Origin: a virus
DNA: 32,551 nucleotides
Virus record (IMG/VR): IMGVR_UViG_3300029945_000585
Strand: one strand, 5' to 3'
Both the position numbers and the translations under genes were made by a program. Positions 11,549-24,338 of this stretch are shown here, in pieces. Position 1 is the first letter of the stretch. Every line of letters begins with the position of its first letter. The notes beneath the pieces were generated by a model that was not told the origin of the DNA, searched no databases, and saw only the letters and a list, made by a program, of their open reading frames with translations.

Positions 11549-11995
11549 TCACATTTCTGTCGCGAGGTCCAGAGGCCATAGAGCCGCTTCAGGAGGCGGT
11601 TGCGGTTCGCCGGGGTCAGTGCTGCCAGGAATGCCTTCTCGAACGTCTGGAGGGCCTTGCTGAGCCAGCGTTTGGCCGGTTCTGCGAACCAGCACGCCTT
11701 CGCCAATCTTGCGCGCTTGATTAAGATCGATTATCGATCCCGACATCGACCCATAAGCCCCCATGTAACCGATTGCGAGATCGCTGTATTTCGGCATGCC
11801 GAGATCGGCTAGCGTGGTGTATCCCAGCGGTAGTTCAATCGGTGTGCGATTGCGGCCACGATAGGTCGTCCAGACCGCCTTGCGCGGCTCCGCCTCCAGC
11901 AGACGGGCCGCGATGTCACGCAGGATACGCCGGGCATGATTGCGTTGGGTGCGATCGCTGGCGGCATCCTCAGCGAGGAGTTCAAAATAGCGCAT
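11549..11995 (-). CDS. CTS-like N-peptide family protein; possible R-S-E-type ART-like (YRG, GSMSGS, GEGVLV)
   Basis: MRYFELLAEDA... N-terminus. CCTAAATA then 6 nt then ATG. TTYRGRN, YGSMSGS and KIGEGVLVRR are partly consistent with Arg / S-x-S / Glu ART motifs, but the catalytic Glu register is shifted. Confidence 0.55.
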   Translation of the reverse strand: MRYFELLAEDAASDRTQRNHARRILRDIAARLLEAEPRKAVWTTYRGRNRTPIELPLGYTTLADLGMPKYSDLAIGYMGAYGSMSGSIIDLNQARKIGEGVLVRRTGQTLAQQGPPDVREGIPGSTDPGEPQPPPEAALWPLDLATEM

Positions 11996-12046: not shown

Positions 12047-12610
12047 TCAGCGGTACTTCAAGCGGGCCTTGGAACCGACTTTGAAGTGTTGTTTGATCTG
12101 CTTCACTTCATCTGAGGACATAGTCCGCGCGTCTTTGTCGTACTTGTAGTCCTTAAACCGATGGTGACGGTCCGTAATCTCTTGGCCGGTATCGAATTCG
12201 TGACCGTGGCTGCGTTCAATCCAACCATGCCCGCCATACTTTTCACGCGCAATGACATCCAAAGGAACCACGCGGTTGACCTTGAGCTTTTCAAATTGAT
12301 CAGCCGGGATGAAAATTTCGCTGCTCCAACGTCCAACTGTATCATGCTCAAGAGCCGATGGATCAGCATATATCTCAGCAACAAACGCTCTCAGATAATC
12401 GTGGCCGTTAACCCAGGGTTCAACGTCACGAGTAAGGTAGATGCCCTTATGTCCCGAGCGTGGGGAAATGGACAAGGCGTTGTCCTCAGGTGCGTAGTTC
12501 GGATTGAGTTTGAAGTTGGCCTTGTTGGTGATGTGATAGAGCTTGACCGGACCAGCGGGCGTGTCCTCGTCTTCAGTCACAATCTCTATGAAGCGGCGGA
12601 TGTCGTGCAT
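12047..12610 (-). CDS. CTS-like N-peptide family protein; possible H-Y-E-type ART-like
   Basis: Start at MHDIRRFIEIVTEDE (ATG 12610). CCTAAATA then 4 nt then ATG. VKLYHITNKANF, GIYLTRD and WSSEIFIP are arranged like the YHGT/Y/E motifs of the 5080 gene. Confidence 0.55.
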   Translation of the reverse strand: MHDIRRFIEIVTEDEDTPAGPVKLYHITNKANFKLNPNYAPEDNALSISPRSGHKGIYLTRDVEPWVNGHDYLRAFVAEIYADPSALEHDTVGRWSSEIFIPADQFEKLKVNRVVPLDVIAREKYGGHGWIERSHGHEFDTGQEITDRHHRFKDYKYDKDARTMSSDEVKQIKQHFKVGSKARLKYR

Positions 12611-12639: not shown

Positions 12640-13287
12640 TTATTTCCTCTCGCCCAGACGCAGTTTGACGTCCTGGCGGGACAGAAAATAGGTTTTGCCT
12701 TTGATGCGAACATGCGGATGCCCGAGGGTCATCGAGGTCACCACGCCGGACTGACCGCTGAGATGTCCGTAGCTCTCCCGCGCATGCTCATTGGTCCACT
12801 GATCGGTCACCGTGACCTTGGCGCCGGGCTGGAGCGTCGTGATGACCGGCGGTGGGATGTTGATCTCGACCTGTTTGACATAGGCCGGGAAGACGCAGAC
12901 CTGCCGGATGTCTTCGTTGCCGACCGCCCGGCCTTCCTTGATGACGATGCCATCATGCTGCTGGCGACAGGCGGCCAAATCGAATTGCTCGAACGTCGCG
13001 GCACTGGCCGTGGCAAACACATAGGGATTATACAGCACGATGCGGCATTGCACGGGATCGCCAAAGCGTTTCGCCATCAGTTTTGTCGGCGCGGCGTAGA
13101 GGCCATCGCCCAGCAGATATTGGCGTTTGAGTTTGGCCTGCCATCGATCGCTCAACGGGGTGCTGGTGCGGCCCTGGCCCCGCCATGCATAAAACAGCGC
13201 GGGCTGACCGGTTTGCAATTCATGCCAGGGGGTCTCCGGCGGCAAGCCCCGGACGCCCGTTTCGGCGATGATCTCATGATAGCGCAT
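12640..13287 (-). CDS. CTS-like N-peptide family protein; weak R-S-E ART-like motifs
   Basis: MRYHEIIAETG... N-terminus. TTTAAATA then 6 nt then ATG, with TTGACA 17-18 nt further upstream. ALFYAWRGQG and LYAAPT are weak Arg / S-T-S-like motifs. Confidence 0.55.
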   Translation of the reverse strand: MRYHEIIAETGVRGLPPETPWHELQTGQPALFYAWRGQGRTSTPLSDRWQAKLKRQYLLGDGLYAAPTKLMAKRFGDPVQCRIVLYNPYVFATASAATFEQFDLAACRQQHDGIVIKEGRAVGNEDIRQVCVFPAYVKQVEINIPPPVITTLQPGAKVTVTDQWTNEHARESYGHLSGQSGVVTSMTLGHPHVRIKGKTYFLSRQDVKLRLGERK

Positions 13288-13812: not shown

Positions 13813-13932
13813 AATACAGCATCTTTTGTGAGGACGCTGAGTATTCGATCATAGCCTATTGGCTGTCAATCGCGCTGTTGAACCGTCGGCGCCTCCGGTC
13901 ACGCGGCGCGTCCACGCCAGTCTAAATATGCC

Positions 13933-14517
13933 ATGAACGATCTCAGGAAATGGATGCAATTGACGGAAGCGCTGGAACCCGATCCCATCGAGGACGAGCG
14001 GCCGGATGAGCTTGCCGAGCTATTAAGCGAATGGATCGACACTGATCCGAACATGACGGATGATTACCGTCAGCAAAAGGCGAGTTTGGCCCAGAGCCTG
14101 TTGCGCTATGACGATATCGCCGCCAAGTTCCGCGAGGTTTCCGCTCCGGTGCTCTATCGGGGGATCAGTCTGCGTAAACCGCGTTTTAACCTGGAGCAGC
14201 ATTTGCTGGTCAAGCCGCGCCGGACCGATGTGTTTGAATCGTGGACGATGCAGCGCCCGATGGCGGATTTGCATGCCATGCGCCCCTGGCTGGTGGATGC
14301 GTCGCTGCGCACCCGAACCATGAGCCGATCGGCATATCCATTCATCATTGCGGAACAAGTGGCCCGGCTGCCGATCTGGATCAATATCTCAACTTTCATG
14401 CATTGGGCGGGCAAGACCACGAATGAGGGCGAGGTCCTGGTGCGGGCCGCGCCACGGGCCTATGCCAGGGTGTATGATGCGCCACGGGTGCCAGGGATGC
14501 CAAATCGTGACAGGTGA
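13933..14517 (+). CDS. CTS-like N-peptide family protein; R-S-E clade ADP-ribosyltransferase (cholera/C3/iota/T4 Alt-ModB type)
   Basis: MNDLRKWMQLTEALE N-terminus. TCTAAATA then 4 nt then ATG. Motif 1 PVLYRGISL (aromatic-R). Motif 2 FESWT (S-x-T). Motif 3 TNEGEVLVR matches the [QE]-x-E-V-L hydrophobic catalytic loop of C3/iota/Vip2. Confidence 0.7.
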   Translation: MNDLRKWMQLTEALEPDPIEDERPDELAELLSEWIDTDPNMTDDYRQQKASLAQSLLRYDDIAAKFREVSAPVLYRGISLRKPRFNLEQHLLVKPRRTDVFESWTMQRPMADLHAMRPWLVDASLRTRTMSRSAYPFIIAEQVARLPIWINISTFMHWAGKTTNEGEVLVRAAPRAYARVYDAPRVPGMPNRDR

Positions 14518-14968
14518 TCTCAGAAAATGGCTGCGGCTGGTTGAAGCAGCAGGGTCGTTTACGCCTGAACAAGCGCGTGAAATCGGCAGTTGCGCGATTA
14601 TCGCCATGGCGCATATCACCGGACTATCCTGGGATCAGGTGTGGGAACAGGCCAAACCGTACTATACCCGCTTTGGCATGGACGCTGGCGCGATTGGTGC
14701 GACCATGCGCGAACTTGGCTGGAAATACGGCGATAAATCGAATTGGAAGCTGCTCGGTATGCCGGTTGGTCTGGCGAGTGCCAAGGCGATGACTGTCCAG
14801 CAAGCGCAGGTCTATCTGCAAGAACATGAGCCGGATGCCCGCTTGATATGCCTGATTCACGCGCGCGGTGTCCCCCATTCGATCGCGTTCGCCGATGGGC
14901 AATTTCATAATGTCGAAGGGGCATGGCGGGCCAGAATACGTTTGGCGTATTATTGCACGCAAGATTGA
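14507..14968 (+). CDS. CTS-like N-peptide family protein, GTG start overlapping the upstream stop by 11 nt; possible Cys-His (papain-like) enzyme
   Basis: GTG at 14507 gives (M)TGDLRKWLRLVEAAG, matching the family motif. Overlaps the TGA of 13933..14517 (translational coupling). GSCAIIAMAHITG and VPHSIAFADGQFHN suggest a Cys/His dyad. Confidence 0.5.
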   Translation: MTGDLRKWLRLVEAAGSFTPEQAREIGSCAIIAMAHITGLSWDQVWEQAKPYYTRFGMDAGAIGATMRELGWKYGDKSNWKLLGMPVGLASAKAMTVQQAQVYLQEHEPDARLICLIHARGVPHSIAFADGQFHNVEGAWRARIRLAYYCTQD

Positions 14969-15574: not shown

Positions 15575-15781
15575 TATCTGCCGCAAATCGTTCGCGCATT
15601 TTGTCGAACGGCAGTATCCGATATCGTGAGTAGGAGCATCGAGAGTTCTGATTGACTGAGATATATGATGCGCCCATCGTGTTCTCGGCGGTGAATTTTC
15701 ACGCGCTTAAAACATTGCAATGAAATATTTTTCGCGGCAGCAATGTTCGCAGAAGCAATCTTTGTCAAAAGGAGTCTCAAC

Positions 15782-17740
15782 ATGGCCCTCAGTCCCACAG
15801 CGAGCCTGACACCCACAGCAACAATCACTCCCACGCCAACTTTGCCAAGTCCGACTGTGACCCCAAGCCCAACCGTGACTCCGAGTCCAACCATAACTCC
15901 AAGTCCGACTGTGACTCCAAGCCCAACCATAACTCCAAGCCCAACGATGACCCCAACTGGGACGATAACTCCAAGCCCAACCATAACTCCAAGCCCAACG
16001 ATGACCCCAACTGGGACGATAACTCCAAGCCCAACGATGACCCCAAGCCCAACCATGACTCCCAGTCCGACTGTCACTCCAAGCCCAACGATGACTCCAA
16101 GCCCGACGATGACCCCAACTGGGACGATGACCCCGAGTCCAACTATAACTCCAAGCCCAACGATGACCCCAACTGGGACGATGACCCCAAGCCCAACCAT
16201 GACTCCCAGTCCGACCATAACTCCAAGTCCAACCAGAAGTATGACAGGAACTGCAACGCAGTCGCCGACCGCAACTTCGACGCCCAGCCCGACCCTGCCA
16301 TCGACAACGGTCACAAGCACGCAGAGTCTGATTATAAAGAATCCAGTCAACCAATCATTACCGGTGATTGCCCTGCCGCCGACTATCACATCGACGCTAT
16401 CGGTCACGTTAAGCCCCACGATACCGATTGCGACCCTGACTGGGACAAATACGGTCACCTCGGTCGCAACGGTCTCCGGCACACTGTCGCCCACCCTGGC
16501 CGGACAAAACATCGCGGTAGCGACTGGCACTACCCTGATGACTGGCGGCAATGCGAAAGGCAGCATTGTGAGCCTCCCGCCTCCCATCCCCGGTCCTACA
16601 CCTGCTCCGGCGACCAACATCGTAGTCAATGTCTCGGATTCGCTCACTGTGGTGGCGGGATCAAACGGCAACATCACCGTCGATGAATCAAGTGATATCA
16701 ATATTGTCGAGCAGGAAAACAGCGGGGCTTTGCTGACCATCAACGTGGCGCAAAACGTCATGGTCAGTGGCAATTTCCTGCCAAGCAGTGCGGGCACCGG
16801 ACAGGCAGACCAACTGGTCATCACGGGCGGCACCAGTGCGACCTATCAGCATTGGGGCGATACCGAATTCCAGGTCAATTCGAGCGCCAGCATCGATGCC
16901 AATCTGACCGGTTGTGGCACGTTCACATTCTCTTCGAGTACGGCGTTGCAGGTTCAAGAAGGTTGCGGAAACGGCCAAGACTTCTATGTCAGTACCGGCC
17001 TCATGGTGATCGATCAAGTCAGCAGTTTTGGTGGGTATATCTCGCTCGATTCGACGACCGATGTCAGTGCCAGCACTGGCGGCGGGCAGGTAATGTTGAT
17101 GGGGGTCACTGGTATCACGAGCTATCAGTCTTATGATGGGCATCTGCAACTATACAGCGGCACGACCTTGATGGAGTCGCTCAATGTTGATGACAAAGGC
17201 GGGTTTGGCGCGATCCAGACCGCAACCGGTGTCGAGTTGCAAACTGGATCGAGTGTCACGCCGACAAATGGAACACTGATCGCGAACACGACAACCACAA
17301 CCGAAATATCAGAAGGCTTAAACATCAATCCACAGGGACTGACATTCGATTCGATGACGTTCATTCATGATTCGTCCGGAATTATGGCCTCTGACGCAAG
17401 CACGATTACCGCCTCGGCATCCGCGTCAATTGGGTTTACGTTTACGGGCGGCTCCGACGCGGATGTGTTTGGCTGCGACGGGCTTGGGAGCAACACCGTG
17501 ATCAACTTCCATGCGTCCGATATTTTTCAGATTGCCAGTGTCAATTCGTTGAGCGATACCTTCTCATGGCAACAGGTCAGTCTCGGGAGTGAAAATGGCT
17601 TGGTCCTCACCGCGACGTCTAAAGTGAACCTATCTGAAACGACGAGCTTCTTGTTTGCCGGATACGCCTCGGCGGACATCAACACGCGATTGGTGCTAGC
17701 CGATACCACCACGGGTAGTGTCGTCACCGCCAAAGCGTGA
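15782..17740 (+). CDS. TPSPT-repeat linker protein with C-terminal beta-helix-like (adhesin/tail-spike-like) domain
   Basis: AAGGAG 8 nt upstream of ATG 15782. ~22 tandem TPSPT[VIM] hexapeptides. ~450-aa C-terminal region rich in G/S/T/N/V beta-strand repeats. No classical signal peptide seen. Confidence 0.7.
   Translation: MALSPTASLTPTATITPTPTLPSPTVTPSPTVTPSPTITPSPTVTPSPTITPSPTMTPTGTITPSPTITPSPTMTPTGTITPSPTMTPSPTMTPSPTVTPSPTMTPSPTMTPTGTMTPSPTITPSPTMTPTGTMTPSPTMTPSPTITPSPTRSMTGTATQSPTATSTPSPTLPSTTVTSTQSLIIKNPVNQSLPVIALPPTITSTLSVTLSPTIPIATLTGTNTVTSVATVSGTLSPTLAGQNIAVATGTTLMTGGNAKGSIVSLPPPIPGPTPAPATNIVVNVSDSLTVVAGSNGNITVDESSDINIVEQENSGALLTINVAQNVMVSGNFLPSSAGTGQADQLVITGGTSATYQHWGDTEFQVNSSASIDANLTGCGTFTFSSSTALQVQEGCGNGQDFYVSTGLMVIDQVSSFGGYISLDSTTDVSASTGGGQVMLMGVTGITSYQSYDGHLQLYSGTTLMESLNVDDKGGFGAIQTATGVELQTGSSVTPTNGTLIANTTTTTEISEGLNINPQGLTFDSMTFIHDSSGIMASDASTITASASASIGFTFTGGSDADVFGCDGLGSNTVINFHASDIFQIASVNSLSDTFSWQQVSLGSENGLVLTATSKVNLSETTSFLFAGYASADINTRLVLADTTTGSVVTAKA
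15845..16240 (+). repeat. Tandem 18-nt coding repeat (ACTCCAAGCCCAACCRTR...) encoding TPSPT[VIM]/TPTGT[IM] units
   Basis: Direct reading of near-identical 18-nt units. The long antisense ORF 15571..16833 (GLGV repeats) is its mirror artifact. Confidence 0.8.
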
Positions 17741-20409: not shown

Positions 20410-20736
20410 ATGGCATCGCCCAATGATACCATCATTACCCTCGCGATGGGCGGCACTCTCGTCGATAGCAGCGGCAACCAATGGACCATCACCAGTGGTG
20501 GTCAGGCAGCAGAGAATGGCGTCACGGACACCGGCACCAATCAGGTTGTCGAGATGGCTTACGTAAATGGTTTGGTGTGGCAGGAGAGTGCCGCTGGTCT
20601 AGAATTCGAACATCCGACAAAACCGATCATCATAGAGCGTCGCGATCGCATCCCGGTTGGCGCTAAAGCGGCGCCGCCAATGCCGCAATGTTTGCGCATA
20701 GTGCAGACCGAGAATTTCGATATCGGTTATCTTTAA
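20410..20736 (+). CDS. Hypothetical protein (overlaps the 3' end of the cfa fragment in antisense)
   Basis: MASPNDTIITLAMGGTLVDSSGNQWTITSGG... The 3' part may be spurious. Confidence 0.25.
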   Translation: MASPNDTIITLAMGGTLVDSSGNQWTITSGGQAAENGVTDTGTNQVVEMAYVNGLVWQESAAGLEFEHPTKPIIIERRDRIPVGAKAAPPMPQCLRIVQTENFDIGYL

Positions 20737-21078
20737 ACCGGTTCGTTCCACCGCTGGGAGAACTTCGGAGAGGGCCGGGGCATAGCCGCCAGGGAAAATA
20801 TATTTGCGGAGCCAGGGATTGGTACTGCCCGGTCCCCGGCTGCGCCCGATCGCATGGATAAGCGCGATGCCATCCGGTTTCAGACAGCGGTGGATCGCAT
20901 CGAAGTACGCTTGATAATGGCCGATCCCGACATGTTCGAACATGCCGACCGAGACGACGCGATCGAAGGTCCCGGTGATCGCCCGGTAATCCAGCAACCG
21001 GAAGTGCACACACTCGGCCAAACCCGCCGCCTCGGCCCGGCCGCGCGCCTCGCTGAGTTGTTCGGCTGACAAGGTGAT
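20599..21078 (-). pseudogene. cfa: Cyclopropane-fatty-acyl-phospholipid synthase (CFA synthase family methyltransferase), C-terminal fragment
   Basis: ITLSAEQ...DYRAITGTFDRVVSVGMFEHVG..YQAYF....LKPDGIALIHAI are CMAS-family motifs. Homology begins abruptly at the ITLS codon (top at 21078). Confidence 0.7.
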
Positions 21079-21219
21079 CGACCGACCACAACATCCCGGC
21101 GCCAGGGGCATTCTGCGCACGGGATCGGCATGCAAAAATCATTCATCTTCACGCTCCCATCACAGCTATTGTTCGAACAGTGGTTTTCGGTAGGATCACG
21201 ACAGTTGGAAGGGTTACCC

Positions 21220-21843: not shown

Positions 21844-22452
21844 TCACTCCGGGTCAATGGGCCGCTGCGACGCTCCCACCTCATCGGCATCCTTTGAACC
21901 CGAGTATTCACCGGTTTGAAATCCAACCGGGAATCGGAACTTTGGATCGGCCACGGCCCAAAGGTGGTACTGGTTGGAGGCATCCATGAGGCGTGATCGA
22001 GCCGGGTATAGCTCGATAGCCTCACACTCAGGTCCCACCAATTCATCTTTACAGCGCTGCAAATCACGCCAATCGTGAATCGGCGTTTGATCGAGGCGCT
22101 TGATCGACAGATATACCATGTTGTCGCCGCTTTCCCGCAGGAGCACTTGATAGCGCGAGTTGACGAACAGCTTGCTCGCGGTCTGCTCTGCAAAATGGGC
22201 GAGCACCTGGGCTTCGGACAGATCGGTTTGTTTCATAAACGCTTTGATCTGCGCGGTGGTCAGAGGCCGATGCGTGCGTTCCTCGAACGGTGTCCAGGGC
22301 GCCTGTTCGATCAGGCCACGATCCGCCCGATCCAGAACATCCCGCGCCATTTTATAAACTGATCCATTGCGGATCGCCGCAACCGTGTCGCTGATATCGA
22401 TGAGCCGCAGCAAGGCTGCCAGTGCACCTGTTAAATCACGCCGACTACTCAT
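21844..22452 (-). CDS. Hypothetical protein
   Basis: 202-aa ORF within the insertion. Confidence 0.5.
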   Translation of the reverse strand: MSSRRDLTGALAALLRLIDISDTVAAIRNGSVYKMARDVLDRADRGLIEQAPWTPFEERTHRPLTTAQIKAFMKQTDLSEAQVLAHFAEQTASKLFVNSRYQVLLRESGDNMVYLSIKRLDQTPIHDWRDLQRCKDELVGPECEAIELYPARSRLMDASNQYHLWAVADPKFRFPVGFQTGEYSGSKDADEVGASQRPIDPE

Positions 22453-23528: not shown

Positions 23529-23717
23529 AACCAACATCCTTGAAAGACAGGATGTTCATACCACGTTCGAAGCGTTTGTCAACTGAATTGGTTCGGAATC
23601 GGACAGACTGCTGTGTGCTTAATTAGTTTAGGTTGGTCGGGTAGCCAGGAAATCCGCGTACTGTCCAAGACGGCCGCCACGCCCTCGCAGGCTTCGGTTT
23701 GGCCCAGGTTCGGGCTT

Positions 23718-24338
23718 CCCCGTTACCTGGGCGCCATACTCACGGGCCAGCGTCAAGGCCATGCCGCCCCAGCCACAGCCGATATCGAGCACGTGTAAAT
23801 CAGATCGATCGAGGCGTAATTTGGCGGCGATGCGATGTTTCTTCGCGGTCTGGGCTTCGTCCAAGGTTTCGTCGCCGCGTGCGAAATAGCCGCAGGAATA
23901 TTGCCGGTCCCGATCGAGGAACAGACTGTAGAGACGCCCATTCAGATCGTAATGGTGCGCCACATTGCGTTGGGCGCGCGCGACGGGATTGTACTGCGTG
24001 AGTGTGCGCAGAAGGTTCGCCAGCCATTGGCGAACCCGAAACATCGGATGGCTGGTCGGATCACGCTCTAGATTGGTCAGCAGCACGTGCAGCACGTCGT
24101 AGATGCTGTCGCCGCGCTCGCAATCCACGGTGATGCTTCCGTCCATGTAGCCCTCGCCCAGCCCCAGGGAGGGGTTCAGCACCAAGCGGCGAATGGTTCG
24201 CTGATCATGCACTTTGAATTTGGCGCGAGGCATGCCCCCATGTTGCCCGTAGCCGGTCTGCGATCCATCGGGCCAAACGACGGTTAACCGCCCGACGACA
24301 ACGAGACGTCTGAAGAGGTGATCCAGAATCTGTTGCAT
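23718..24338 (-). pseudogene. cfa: CFA synthase N-terminal fragment (through the SAM-binding motif VLDIGCGWGGMALTLAREYGAQVTG)
   Basis: N-terminal ...WPDGS... and the VLDIGCGWGG motif I. Reading continues into non-homologous inserted sequence before a stop at 23628. Confidence 0.7.

Follow-up and report, generated by a model that had tools for sequence, protein, structure and literature searches.

A predicted R-S-E ADP-ribosyltransferase and its shared leader peptide in the DNA of an uncultivated jumbo phage

ADP-ribosylation ranks among the chief weapons in the conflict between phages and their hosts, and few phage ADP-ribosyltransferases (ARTs) have known targets. Phage-encoded ARTs, a packaged one among them (Alt of phage T4, an enzyme of the R-S-E class with an ExE motif), and capsid-targeting sequences (CTSs) have all been described before. 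Here we analyze a 32,551-nucleotide stretch of viral DNA, IMG/VR virus record IMGVR_UViG_3300029945_000585 (hereafter the window), and within it an open reading frame (ORF) at 13933-14517 on the + strand. Two things about it are new: a sequence family that no profile library recognizes and that we assign to the R-S-E class by its predicted fold, and the place of that family in a leader-tagged, apparently late-promoter-driven gene set of an uncultivated jumbo phage that is rich in ART-like enzymes. On balance we lean toward reading the ORF as a late-expressed, probably arginine-specific mono-ART of this phage, perhaps packaged and injected like T4 Alt.

The closest described system is the internal-protein system of T4. 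Of Alt and ModB, only Alt is known to be packaged in the T4 head. The T4 prohead-protease site is (L/I)-x-E. The T4 CTS is MKTYQEFIAE. Internal proteins have this tag in common, and the 10 residues at its start are enough for packaging; the gp21 protease takes off the propeptides, residues 8 and 10 govern processing, and Alt loses a 7-residue N-terminal propeptide (PMC9026906). ART domains have also been reported in polyvalent proteins injected with phage DNA (PMC7824862). The window protein is a predicted phage ART, as Alt is a known one, and its short N-terminal segment ends in [LIV]-x-E like the propeptide of Alt and the CTS of IPIII. It is much smaller, at 194 residues, than its Alt-like matches in BFVD (390-542 residues), and, whereas ART packaging is known from Alt, the packaging of the window protein can only be proposed.

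Motifs, fold and family of the predicted enzyme

A first-pass annotation made from the letters of the sequence had placed an R-S-E signature in this ORF, and the reading frame, its coordinates and the three motifs PVLYRGISL, FESWT and TNEGEVLVR are all exactly as it described them. The ORF runs from ATG to TGA and is predicted to encode an R-S-E (ExE) mono-ADP-ribosyltransferase of a new sequence family. It opens with a leader peptide, MNDLRKWMQLTE (residues 1-12, 13933-13968, on the + strand like all features of this gene), which is modelled as a helix over residues 2-14 and is followed by an acidic, proline-rich linker (ALEPDPIEDERPDE). An N-terminal helical lobe (13999-14130; helices 23-36 and 45-66) carries invariant L27, W34 and D38, the latter two within the string EWIxxDP, and precedes an ART core of ≈115 residues (14140-14487; residues ≈70-185). 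Such a pairing of a helical lobe with an ART core lobe is also found in the SdeA/SidE ARTs (PMC7827354).

Read directly from the sequence, the motifs are distributed along this core. LYRG (L74-Y75-R76-G77; 14152-14163) lies within PVLYRGISL and supplies R76, the motif-1 arginine expected to bind nicotinamide adenine dinucleotide (NAD). ESWT (E102-S103-W104-T105; 14236-14247), within FESWT, is an S-x-T variant of the STS motif, and just ahead of its strand comes a turn, P95-R96-R-T-D99 (14215-14229), in which the proline, second-position arginine and aspartate are invariant. EGEVLVR (E165-G166-E167-V-L-V-R; 14425-14445), within TNEGEVLVR, contains the predicted catalytic glutamate, E167. The ARTT loop of the class follows the pattern X-X-phi-X-X-E/Q-X-E (PMC7827354), and the segment G160-K-T-T-N-E165-G-E167 (14410-14433) is its equivalent here, in the form X-X-phi-X-X-E-X-E.

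By its sequences, the family is small, with ≈10 known members, previously unclassified and unrecognized by current profile libraries. A word-indexed search of 5.8 billion proteins returned only an identical protein (P0001) and one fragment with 70% identity; scanning 1.84 billion representatives exhaustively with HMMER yielded eight proteins, of which one is a spurious repeat protein, and a profile search added two further members. Used as a single query for related loci, the ART protein found nothing in GTDB genomes or IMG/VR, and tblastn against 50,697 phage records gave no match at E ≤ 1. We aligned nine family sequences, with 26-41% identity to the window protein (alignment A3). Invariant across these nine are L27, W34, D38, L74, R76, P95, R96, D99, W104, A115, L146, E165, E167 and V170; S103 is serine in eight (glycine in P0004), and position 105 is threonine or serine in all. 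The ARTT loop's phi position, a threonine in the window protein, is aromatic in only three of the nine (tryptophan in P0003 and P0009, phenylalanine in P0006). Because all three motifs form the conserved core of this alignment, we do not regard them as chance strings. The P-R-x-x-D turn before the S-W-T strand and the invariant tryptophan inside S-x-T have no assignable counterpart in known R-S-E enzymes.

An AlphaFold model built from the single ART sequence was unusable, with a predicted local distance difference test score (pLDDT) of 36, whereas the same program run on alignment A3 gave a pLDDT of 86 and a predicted template modelling score of 0.77, with pLDDT values of 91-95 in the blocks that bear the motifs. 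The only poor region, residues ≈121-134, is an insertion unique to the window protein. The modelled core comprises, in order, strands 73-80, 91-93 and 101-105, helix 108-124, and strands 135-142, 148-151, 167-171, 175-177 and 180-182. R76 falls within strand 73-80; S103 and T105 sit at the end of strand 101-105, ahead of helix 108-124; and E167 opens strand 167-171, after the loop that carries E165. In the R-S-E class, the core comprises six strands together with a helix, and strands 1, 2 and 5 bear R, S and E, respectively (PMC7827354). When the short strand 91-93 is treated as extra, the model shows the same layout: an ART core fold, arginine on strand 1, serine on strand 2 followed by a helix, and the ARTT loop leading to glutamate on strand 5. 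R76, S103 and E167 thus take the canonical positions that had been proposed from the sequence, and neither the absence of an ART fold nor a displacement of the motifs, either of which would have counted against that proposal, is seen in the family-based model. The equivalence is one of secondary structure and fold, not of individual atoms. At that level, the predicted ART fold and the R-S-ExE set are well supported, and the ORF very probably encodes an ART enzyme.

Structural comparison of the model returned a list of ARTs, led by Vis of Vibrio splendidus (4xzj; score 7.5 over 127 residues at 3.2 Å) and KptA (6.2). These were followed by HopU1 and TreX (5.6 each), Tre1, C3bot2 and pertussis S1 (5.5 each), Certhrax and CPILE-a (5.4 each), and C3stau2 and VIP2 (5.3 each), and the list also holds ART2.2, Scabin, SidE, SpvB, ExoS and LT. 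Foldseek gave weak matches in the PDB to KptA, cholera toxin, pertussis toxin and ParT, and in BFVD to a protein of jumbo phage PTm1, an ART of Gordonia phage GMA2, Alt-like RNA polymerase ADP-ribosylases and an ART-PolyVal-like domain. The likeness to T4 Alt and ModB that the first-pass annotation suggested does not extend to sequence, as tblastn against the phage records found no match to Alt, ModA or ModB, and the Foldseek matches to Alt-like proteins reach only E 0.15-1.1. The small R-S-E toxins differ from the window protein as well: identity to Vis, HopU1, C3, Tre1 and TreX is only 9-15%, the window protein has neither a secretion domain nor a signal and is set in a phage rather than at a secreted toxin locus, and its middle motif is S-W-T with an invariant tryptophan, accompanied by the extra invariant P-R-x-x-D turn. 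ParT/RES toxins are alike in size (160-190 residues) and ART fold, yet ParT lies outside the R-S-E class (PMC7827354), whereas the family described here keeps the full R-S-ExE set; no ParT/RES profile match was found in Pfam.

We infer catalysis and arginine specificity from these class features. A glutamate at position 6 of the ARTT loop goes with arginine targets, and the DNA-targeting enzyme ScARP has a glutamine there (PMC7827354). With E165 standing two residues before E167, the enzyme is probably an arginine-specific mono-ART. The fold might instead serve another chemistry, such as NAD+ consumption or modification of a nucleic acid or small molecule, or the protein might be inactive; KptA/Tpt1 RNA 2'-phosphotransferases are among the best structural matches, the R-S-E enzymes pierisin, ScARP and Scabin act on DNA, and the invariant P-R-x-x-D turn lacks an assignable counterpart. 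We consider this improbable, since the three catalytic motifs are kept throughout the family, which argues against an inactive protein, and the glutamate at loop position 6 argues against a ScARP-like activity.

The shared leader and the late-promoter-like box

The ART leader is one of a related set that stands at the N terminus of at least eight ORFs in the window. All eight leaders end in [LIV]-x-E (LTE, LVE, LVE, LFE, ITE, VTE, IAE and LAE), and each is followed by an acidic or proline-rich linker. Besides the ART ORF, the set comprises, on the + strand, an ORF of 84 residues at 4405-4659 (MTLRELLQITE), one of 252 residues at 5080-5838 (MSIRAWMRLVE), a GTG-initiated ORF of 153 residues at 14507-14968 (leader (M)TGDLRKWLRLVE) and one of 123 residues adjoining cas3 at 25910-26281 (MHVFRKWMRLFE); on the - strand are ORFs of 148 residues at 11549-11995 (MRYFELLAE), 187 residues at 12047-12610, counted from the ATG at 12610 (MHDIRRFIEIVTE), and 215 residues at 12640-13287 (MRYHEIIAE). 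BLASTP and hhalign comparisons among these proteins found no detectable similarity between their bodies, so that the leader is all they have in common. Leader patterns written as regular expressions matched five and two times in the window, always at ORF N termini, against 0.005 and 0 in mononucleotide shuffles, a count that is partly circular because the patterns were derived from the same ORFs. The arginine codons vary among the leader copies (AGG, AGA, CGC and CGA), so the leader is conserved at the level of protein.

The first-pass description of the ART N terminus as CTS-like gains support from this pattern. As with the T4 tag, which is shared by unrelated internal proteins, the leader sits on eight unrelated ORFs, its end is [LIV]-x-E, and two of the leaders, MRYHEIIAE and MRYFELLAE, are close to MKTYQEFIAE. 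The commonest form in the window, xLRKWMxLxE, is unlike the T4 sequence.

A second shared feature lies upstream. The sequence CTAAATA at 13922-13928 (+), 4 nt ahead of the ART start codon, resembles a T4-type late promoter. [C/T]TAAATA occurs 4-6 nt ahead of the ATG in six of the eight leader ORFs: as CTAAATA at 4 nt for the ORF at 12047-12610, at 5 nt for that at 4405-4659 and at 6 nt for those at 11549-11995 and 25910-26281, and as TTAAATA at 6 nt for that at 12640-13287. The ORF at 5080 has TAAATA 28 nt upstream together with a GAGGA Shine-Dalgarno sequence. CTAAATA is found six times in the window against 0.82 expected, and TAAATA 12 times against 4.6, with eight of the 12 upstream of ORFs. 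When the window was scanned for sigma-70 promoters and terminators, the counts did not exceed the shuffle means, and nothing resembling a promoter was seen ahead of the ART ORF. In T4, the late promoter is TATAAATA at -13 to -6, and the putative late promoter of the T4-like phage Aeh1 is CTAAATA from -12 (PMC1524935). T4 and the window thus share a late-promoter-type box upstream of the genes concerned; with spacing like that of T4 and Aeh1, transcription would begin on the start codon or right beside it. Unlike in T4, the distance of 4-6 nt implies a leaderless mRNA.

Box, start codon a few bases on, and leader of ≈12 residues together make up a cassette that we regard as a more useful point than the ART itself and that predictions and homology searches support well. 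The leader also begins family members P0002, P0003, P0005, P0007, P0009 and P0010. In P0003 the cassette reads cATAAATA-taggt-ATG with leader MKIADIISE, and in P0005 cCTAAATA-gccgc-ATG with leader MKMREIMTVINE; ahead of the ATG, leaderless members (P0004, P0006 and a Rhizobium copy) have either no box or a stretch rich in purines that resembles a Shine-Dalgarno sequence. A pattern scan of metagenomes gave 117 matches, mostly due to chance, and four loci with real cassettes. Together these four unrelated contigs (G+C fraction 0.47-0.54) hold six cassettes, and four of the six cassette proteins have YH[GVA][TGS] motifs like the ART-PolyVal protein of the window; for one protein (L100), the first 60 residues give a match to PF18760 at E 8.5e-7.

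That ART-PolyVal protein is the product of the leader ORF at 5080-5838 (PF18760, E 7e-24), ART-PolyVal being the ART domain that polyvalent proteins have in phages and conjugative elements. The protein shares with the ART ORF the window, the leader and, in other metagenomes, the same cassette, and both belong to the ART-fold proteins of mobile elements for which delivery along with the DNA has been proposed. Its first motif is YHGT, of the histidine type, whereas that of the ART ORF is of the arginine type; the ART ORF has no Pfam match, and hhalign of the ART family against the ART-PolyVal protein was not significant (E 0.17). We considered whether the leader-bearing neighbors are ART paralogues and rejected this, as BLASTP and hhalign show the leader alone in common; the ART claim is kept for the ORF at 5080 only, on its Pfam match. 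ART-like strings can be picked out in the ORFs at 11549-11995 (TTYRG...GEGVLVRR), 12047-12610 (LYHITN...GIYLT...SEIFIP) and 12640-13287 (FYAWRG...HDGIVIKE); these might be further ARTs, but none of the three has profile or pairwise support as one.

The ORF at 14507-14968 overlaps the end of the ART gene by 11 nt and is probably co-transcribed with it. It matches phrog_3754, of unknown function, weakly (E 2.9e-5) and has no PDB match. A Cys...His pattern in it (GSCAIIAMAH ... VPHSIAF) suggests a small cysteine-peptidase-like fold.

Public gene calls truncate the shared leader. Database entries start at internal Met8 of the ART ORF (13954 instead of 13933), giving P0001 with 187 residues, and at Met14 of the ART-PolyVal ORF (5119 instead of 5080), giving 239 residues. 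The codons for R-K-W-M (AGG AAA TGG ATG) resemble a Shine-Dalgarno sequence followed by a start codon.

The conserved 5' element might be read differently, as a unit of expression or shuffling, made up of late promoter, leaderless AUG and a handful of conserved codons, that carries no address. The codons would then favor leaderless translation or recombination, and the ART would act late in the producing cell, on proteins of host or phage, without being injected. The conserved unit does reach beyond the first ≈12 codons into the DNA ahead of the ATG, it recurs on differing cargo genes in other contigs, and the internal Shine-Dalgarno-like AGGA with Met8 would give a leader-free ART. The peptide, however, is conserved although the arginine codons differ. 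Moreover, the leader at 14507 has no box of its own and that at 5080 has its box 28 nt away plus a Shine-Dalgarno sequence, so the peptide is conserved independently of the DNA box, and a flexible linker stands behind every leader, as would be expected of a tag. We judge an element without any address function to be rather unlikely.

Phage origin and the case for packaging

Homology searches support a phage origin well, and the ART gene very probably belongs to a phage. Assemblies of several metagenomes contain the element, one of them in a contig of 259 kb. The start of the window falls within a gene for a 3549-residue protein that matches phrog_10938, annotated as "virion structural protein" (E 0, 1117 bits). 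Searched by tblastn, this gene found 93 records, with matches to the giant virion proteins of several phages: Agrobacterium phage Atu_ph07 (34% identity), in which the gene comes after a baseplate wedge gene, Sinorhizobium phage Phosso, Pseudomonas phage PA5oct and large (350-380 kb) Escherichia coli jumbo phages. A megablast search of the window against the phage collection returned nothing. A glycosyltransferase of GT2-TPR type at 17718-18869 matches a phage glycosyltransferase family, phrog_13126, at E 7e-93. A neighbor whose homologues come solely from phages of 462-735 kb and a type I-C cas set that lacks cas1, cas2 and cas4, both described below, likewise speak for a phage. Atu_ph07 has been placed in jumbo-phage group 2.2, and groups 1 and 2 have orthologues of the T4 gp20 portal and gp21 prohead protease (Iyer et al., PMC7824862). 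By analogy with these group 2 relatives, the phage of the window may have a gp21-type prohead protease.

We infer late transcription, packaging and injection from the box resembling a late promoter, the CTS-like leader that these ORFs share, the relatives of the phage and the precedent of T4 Alt. The ART would be transcribed late from the T4/Aeh1-type box, on an mRNA beginning at or beside the AUG; the leader would load the protein into the prohead, where a gp21-type protease would trim it after Glu12; and the enzyme would be ejected with the DNA and, in the manner of T4 Alt, modify host targets soon after the next infection begins. Following the rules of the class, R76 and S103 would hold NAD+, E167 would drive cleavage of the nicotinamide-ribose bond and E165 would steer ADP-ribose to an arginine of a host protein. 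For packaging in the virion, taken by itself, we see the case as evenly balanced.

Several observations weigh against this sequence of events. On the side of the enzyme, Pfam, PHROGs and NCBIfam contain no match for the ART protein and so offer no sequence link to described ART families; in Pfam there is nothing at E ≤ 1 for the window protein or any of the nine family members, searching the PDB with phmmer and hmmsearch brought up nothing meaningful (the top match was CutA, E 1.1), and the family profile found none among PDB chains. On the side of the leader, [LIV]-x-E is a pattern of low information, and no leader was seen in the 48-kb region of Atu_ph07 that was examined. An AGGA resembling a Shine-Dalgarno sequence stands 5 nt ahead of Met8, and, because public gene calls also start there, the ART leader might go untranslated. 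Both the gp21-type protease and late transcription are assumptions based on relatives, the genes for head, scaffold, protease and a gp55-type late sigma factor lying outside the DNA examined. Finally, leaderless relatives on Rhizobium plasmids and a relative beside a ParS-type antitoxin gene, described below, indicate that the enzyme family is not tied to virions.

Were the leader a capsid-targeting tag, a simple rule based on sequence would be enough to list what proteins an uncultivated jumbo phage packs into its head for injection, and the list for this window would be dominated by ART-like enzymes. The injected set of jumbo phages would then become testable from sequence, and the leaders could serve as portable packaging tags for engineering.

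Another possible destination for the leader is suggested by a neighboring gene. At 1320-3842 (+), 560 nt upstream of the first leader ORF, an 840-residue protein has Major Vault Protein (MVP) shoulder and repeat domains (PF11978, E 5e-18). In eukaryotes, vaults contain the ART PARP4, and the leader might address the ART, the ART-PolyVal enzyme and their neighbors to a vault-like shell formed by the MVP homologue, as a viral counterpart. In the phage and plasmid collections, MVP-like homologues were found only in uncultured phages of 735 kb and 462 kb (37% identity over 96%) and in no plasmid, and in these 462-735 kb phages many ORFs near the MVP gene begin MKYIxEYEEF. Co-location is, however, the sole evidence for such an address, whereas T4 capsid targeting offers a direct precedent for the cassette of leader and late promoter. 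We found no evidence that phage MVP homologues assemble shells, and the contigs with leader-bearing homologues, though short, show no MVP gene. A vault address therefore strikes us as very improbable. In the same huge phages (LR756501 and LR756500; L021 and L022), series of ORFs start with MKYIxEYEEFIxEA or MKYLEFINEA, a further family of common N-terminal peptides, near in sequence to the T4 CTS; the late box cannot be judged there because the genomes are too AT-rich. Synteny of the MVP gene with the 735-kb phage was also considered and dismissed, as the neighboring genes are dissimilar.

Family members elsewhere and other genes of the window

Relatives of the ART occur in settings other than phages. 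By tblastn, a homologue that lacks the leader was located on two conjugative plasmids of Rhizobium. The copy on pCB3090_2 (L017, 531135-531656) adjoins a disrupted gene for a methylase and SNF2-helicase protein of ≈1800 residues, genes for a ParB-family protein and a zincin-like metallopeptidase, and DUF736, and lies within about 10 kb of traG/traD/traC and traA. P0006 comes after a DprA-like gene. P0003 and P0005 (L015 and L025), both with an xTAAATA-N5-ATG cassette, each abut an IS1595-family transposase gene, tail to tail. On the contig of P0007 (L024; 441-872 and 1175-1693), the ART gene lies 302 nt downstream of an antitoxin-type gene with Xre-HTH and Xre_MbcA_ParS_C domains, the latter described as the toxin-binding domain of Xre/MbcA/ParS antitoxins, and is followed by genes with MutL-type (HATPase_c_3 and MutL_C), topoisomerase IV/gyrase A-type and NUDIX domains. 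Located on plasmids, beside transposases and next to an antitoxin, the catalytic module of the family thus moves between mobile elements. A toxin-antitoxin-like setting, seen at least once, fits an enzyme that is harmful to bacterial cells.

These settings raise the question of whether the window gene is itself a conflict toxin, of the toxin-antitoxin, abortive-infection or superinfection-exclusion kind, that a partner neutralizes, possibly the product of the ORF at 14507-14968. The antitoxin-type gene near P0007 and the transposase genes abutting P0003 and P0005 speak for it, as do the 11-nt overlap of the downstream ORF with the ART gene and the structural neighbors Tre1 and TreX, small antibacterial ART toxins that were solved with immunity proteins. 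In the window, however, Pfam, PHROG and NCBIfam place no antitoxin-type domain beside the ART gene; among the homologues examined, only P0007 adjoins such a gene, a feature it shares with ParT/RES toxins. The downstream ORF bears the same leader and is for that reason more readily seen as another cargo protein than as one conferring immunity, and the ORF downstream of P0006 has no similarity to it. We therefore think it improbable that the ART serves as a conflict toxin.

The remainder of the window contains further genes of note. The gene preceding the glycosyltransferase (15743-17740, +) encodes a 665-residue protein, which varies in length among assemblies (499 residues in L001), with a long Thr/Pro/Ser repeat of PTxTPS units. 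A clustered regularly interspaced short palindromic repeat (CRISPR) array occupies ≈6588-9214: intact repeats of ≈35 nt (GTTTTCGTAGCCACCCAACGATAGGGTGACTGCAC) recur at 62-66 nt spacing from ≈8314 to 9214, decayed ones extend back to ≈6588, and public assemblies break inside the array. At 26285-32008, and in L018, type I-C genes cas3 (-), cas5d, csd1/cas8c and cas7 are present, whereas cas1, cas2 and cas4 are missing from the 4 kb beyond them, so that the phage carries a system for interference only. Two halves of a cyclopropane-fatty-acid-synthase-like (CMAS) gene lie ≈2.5 kb apart, at 20599-21135 (-) and 23628-24338 (-). The gap between them holds three ORFs, including one for a DUF7694 protein (21844-22452), and has the appearance of an insertion into the gene.

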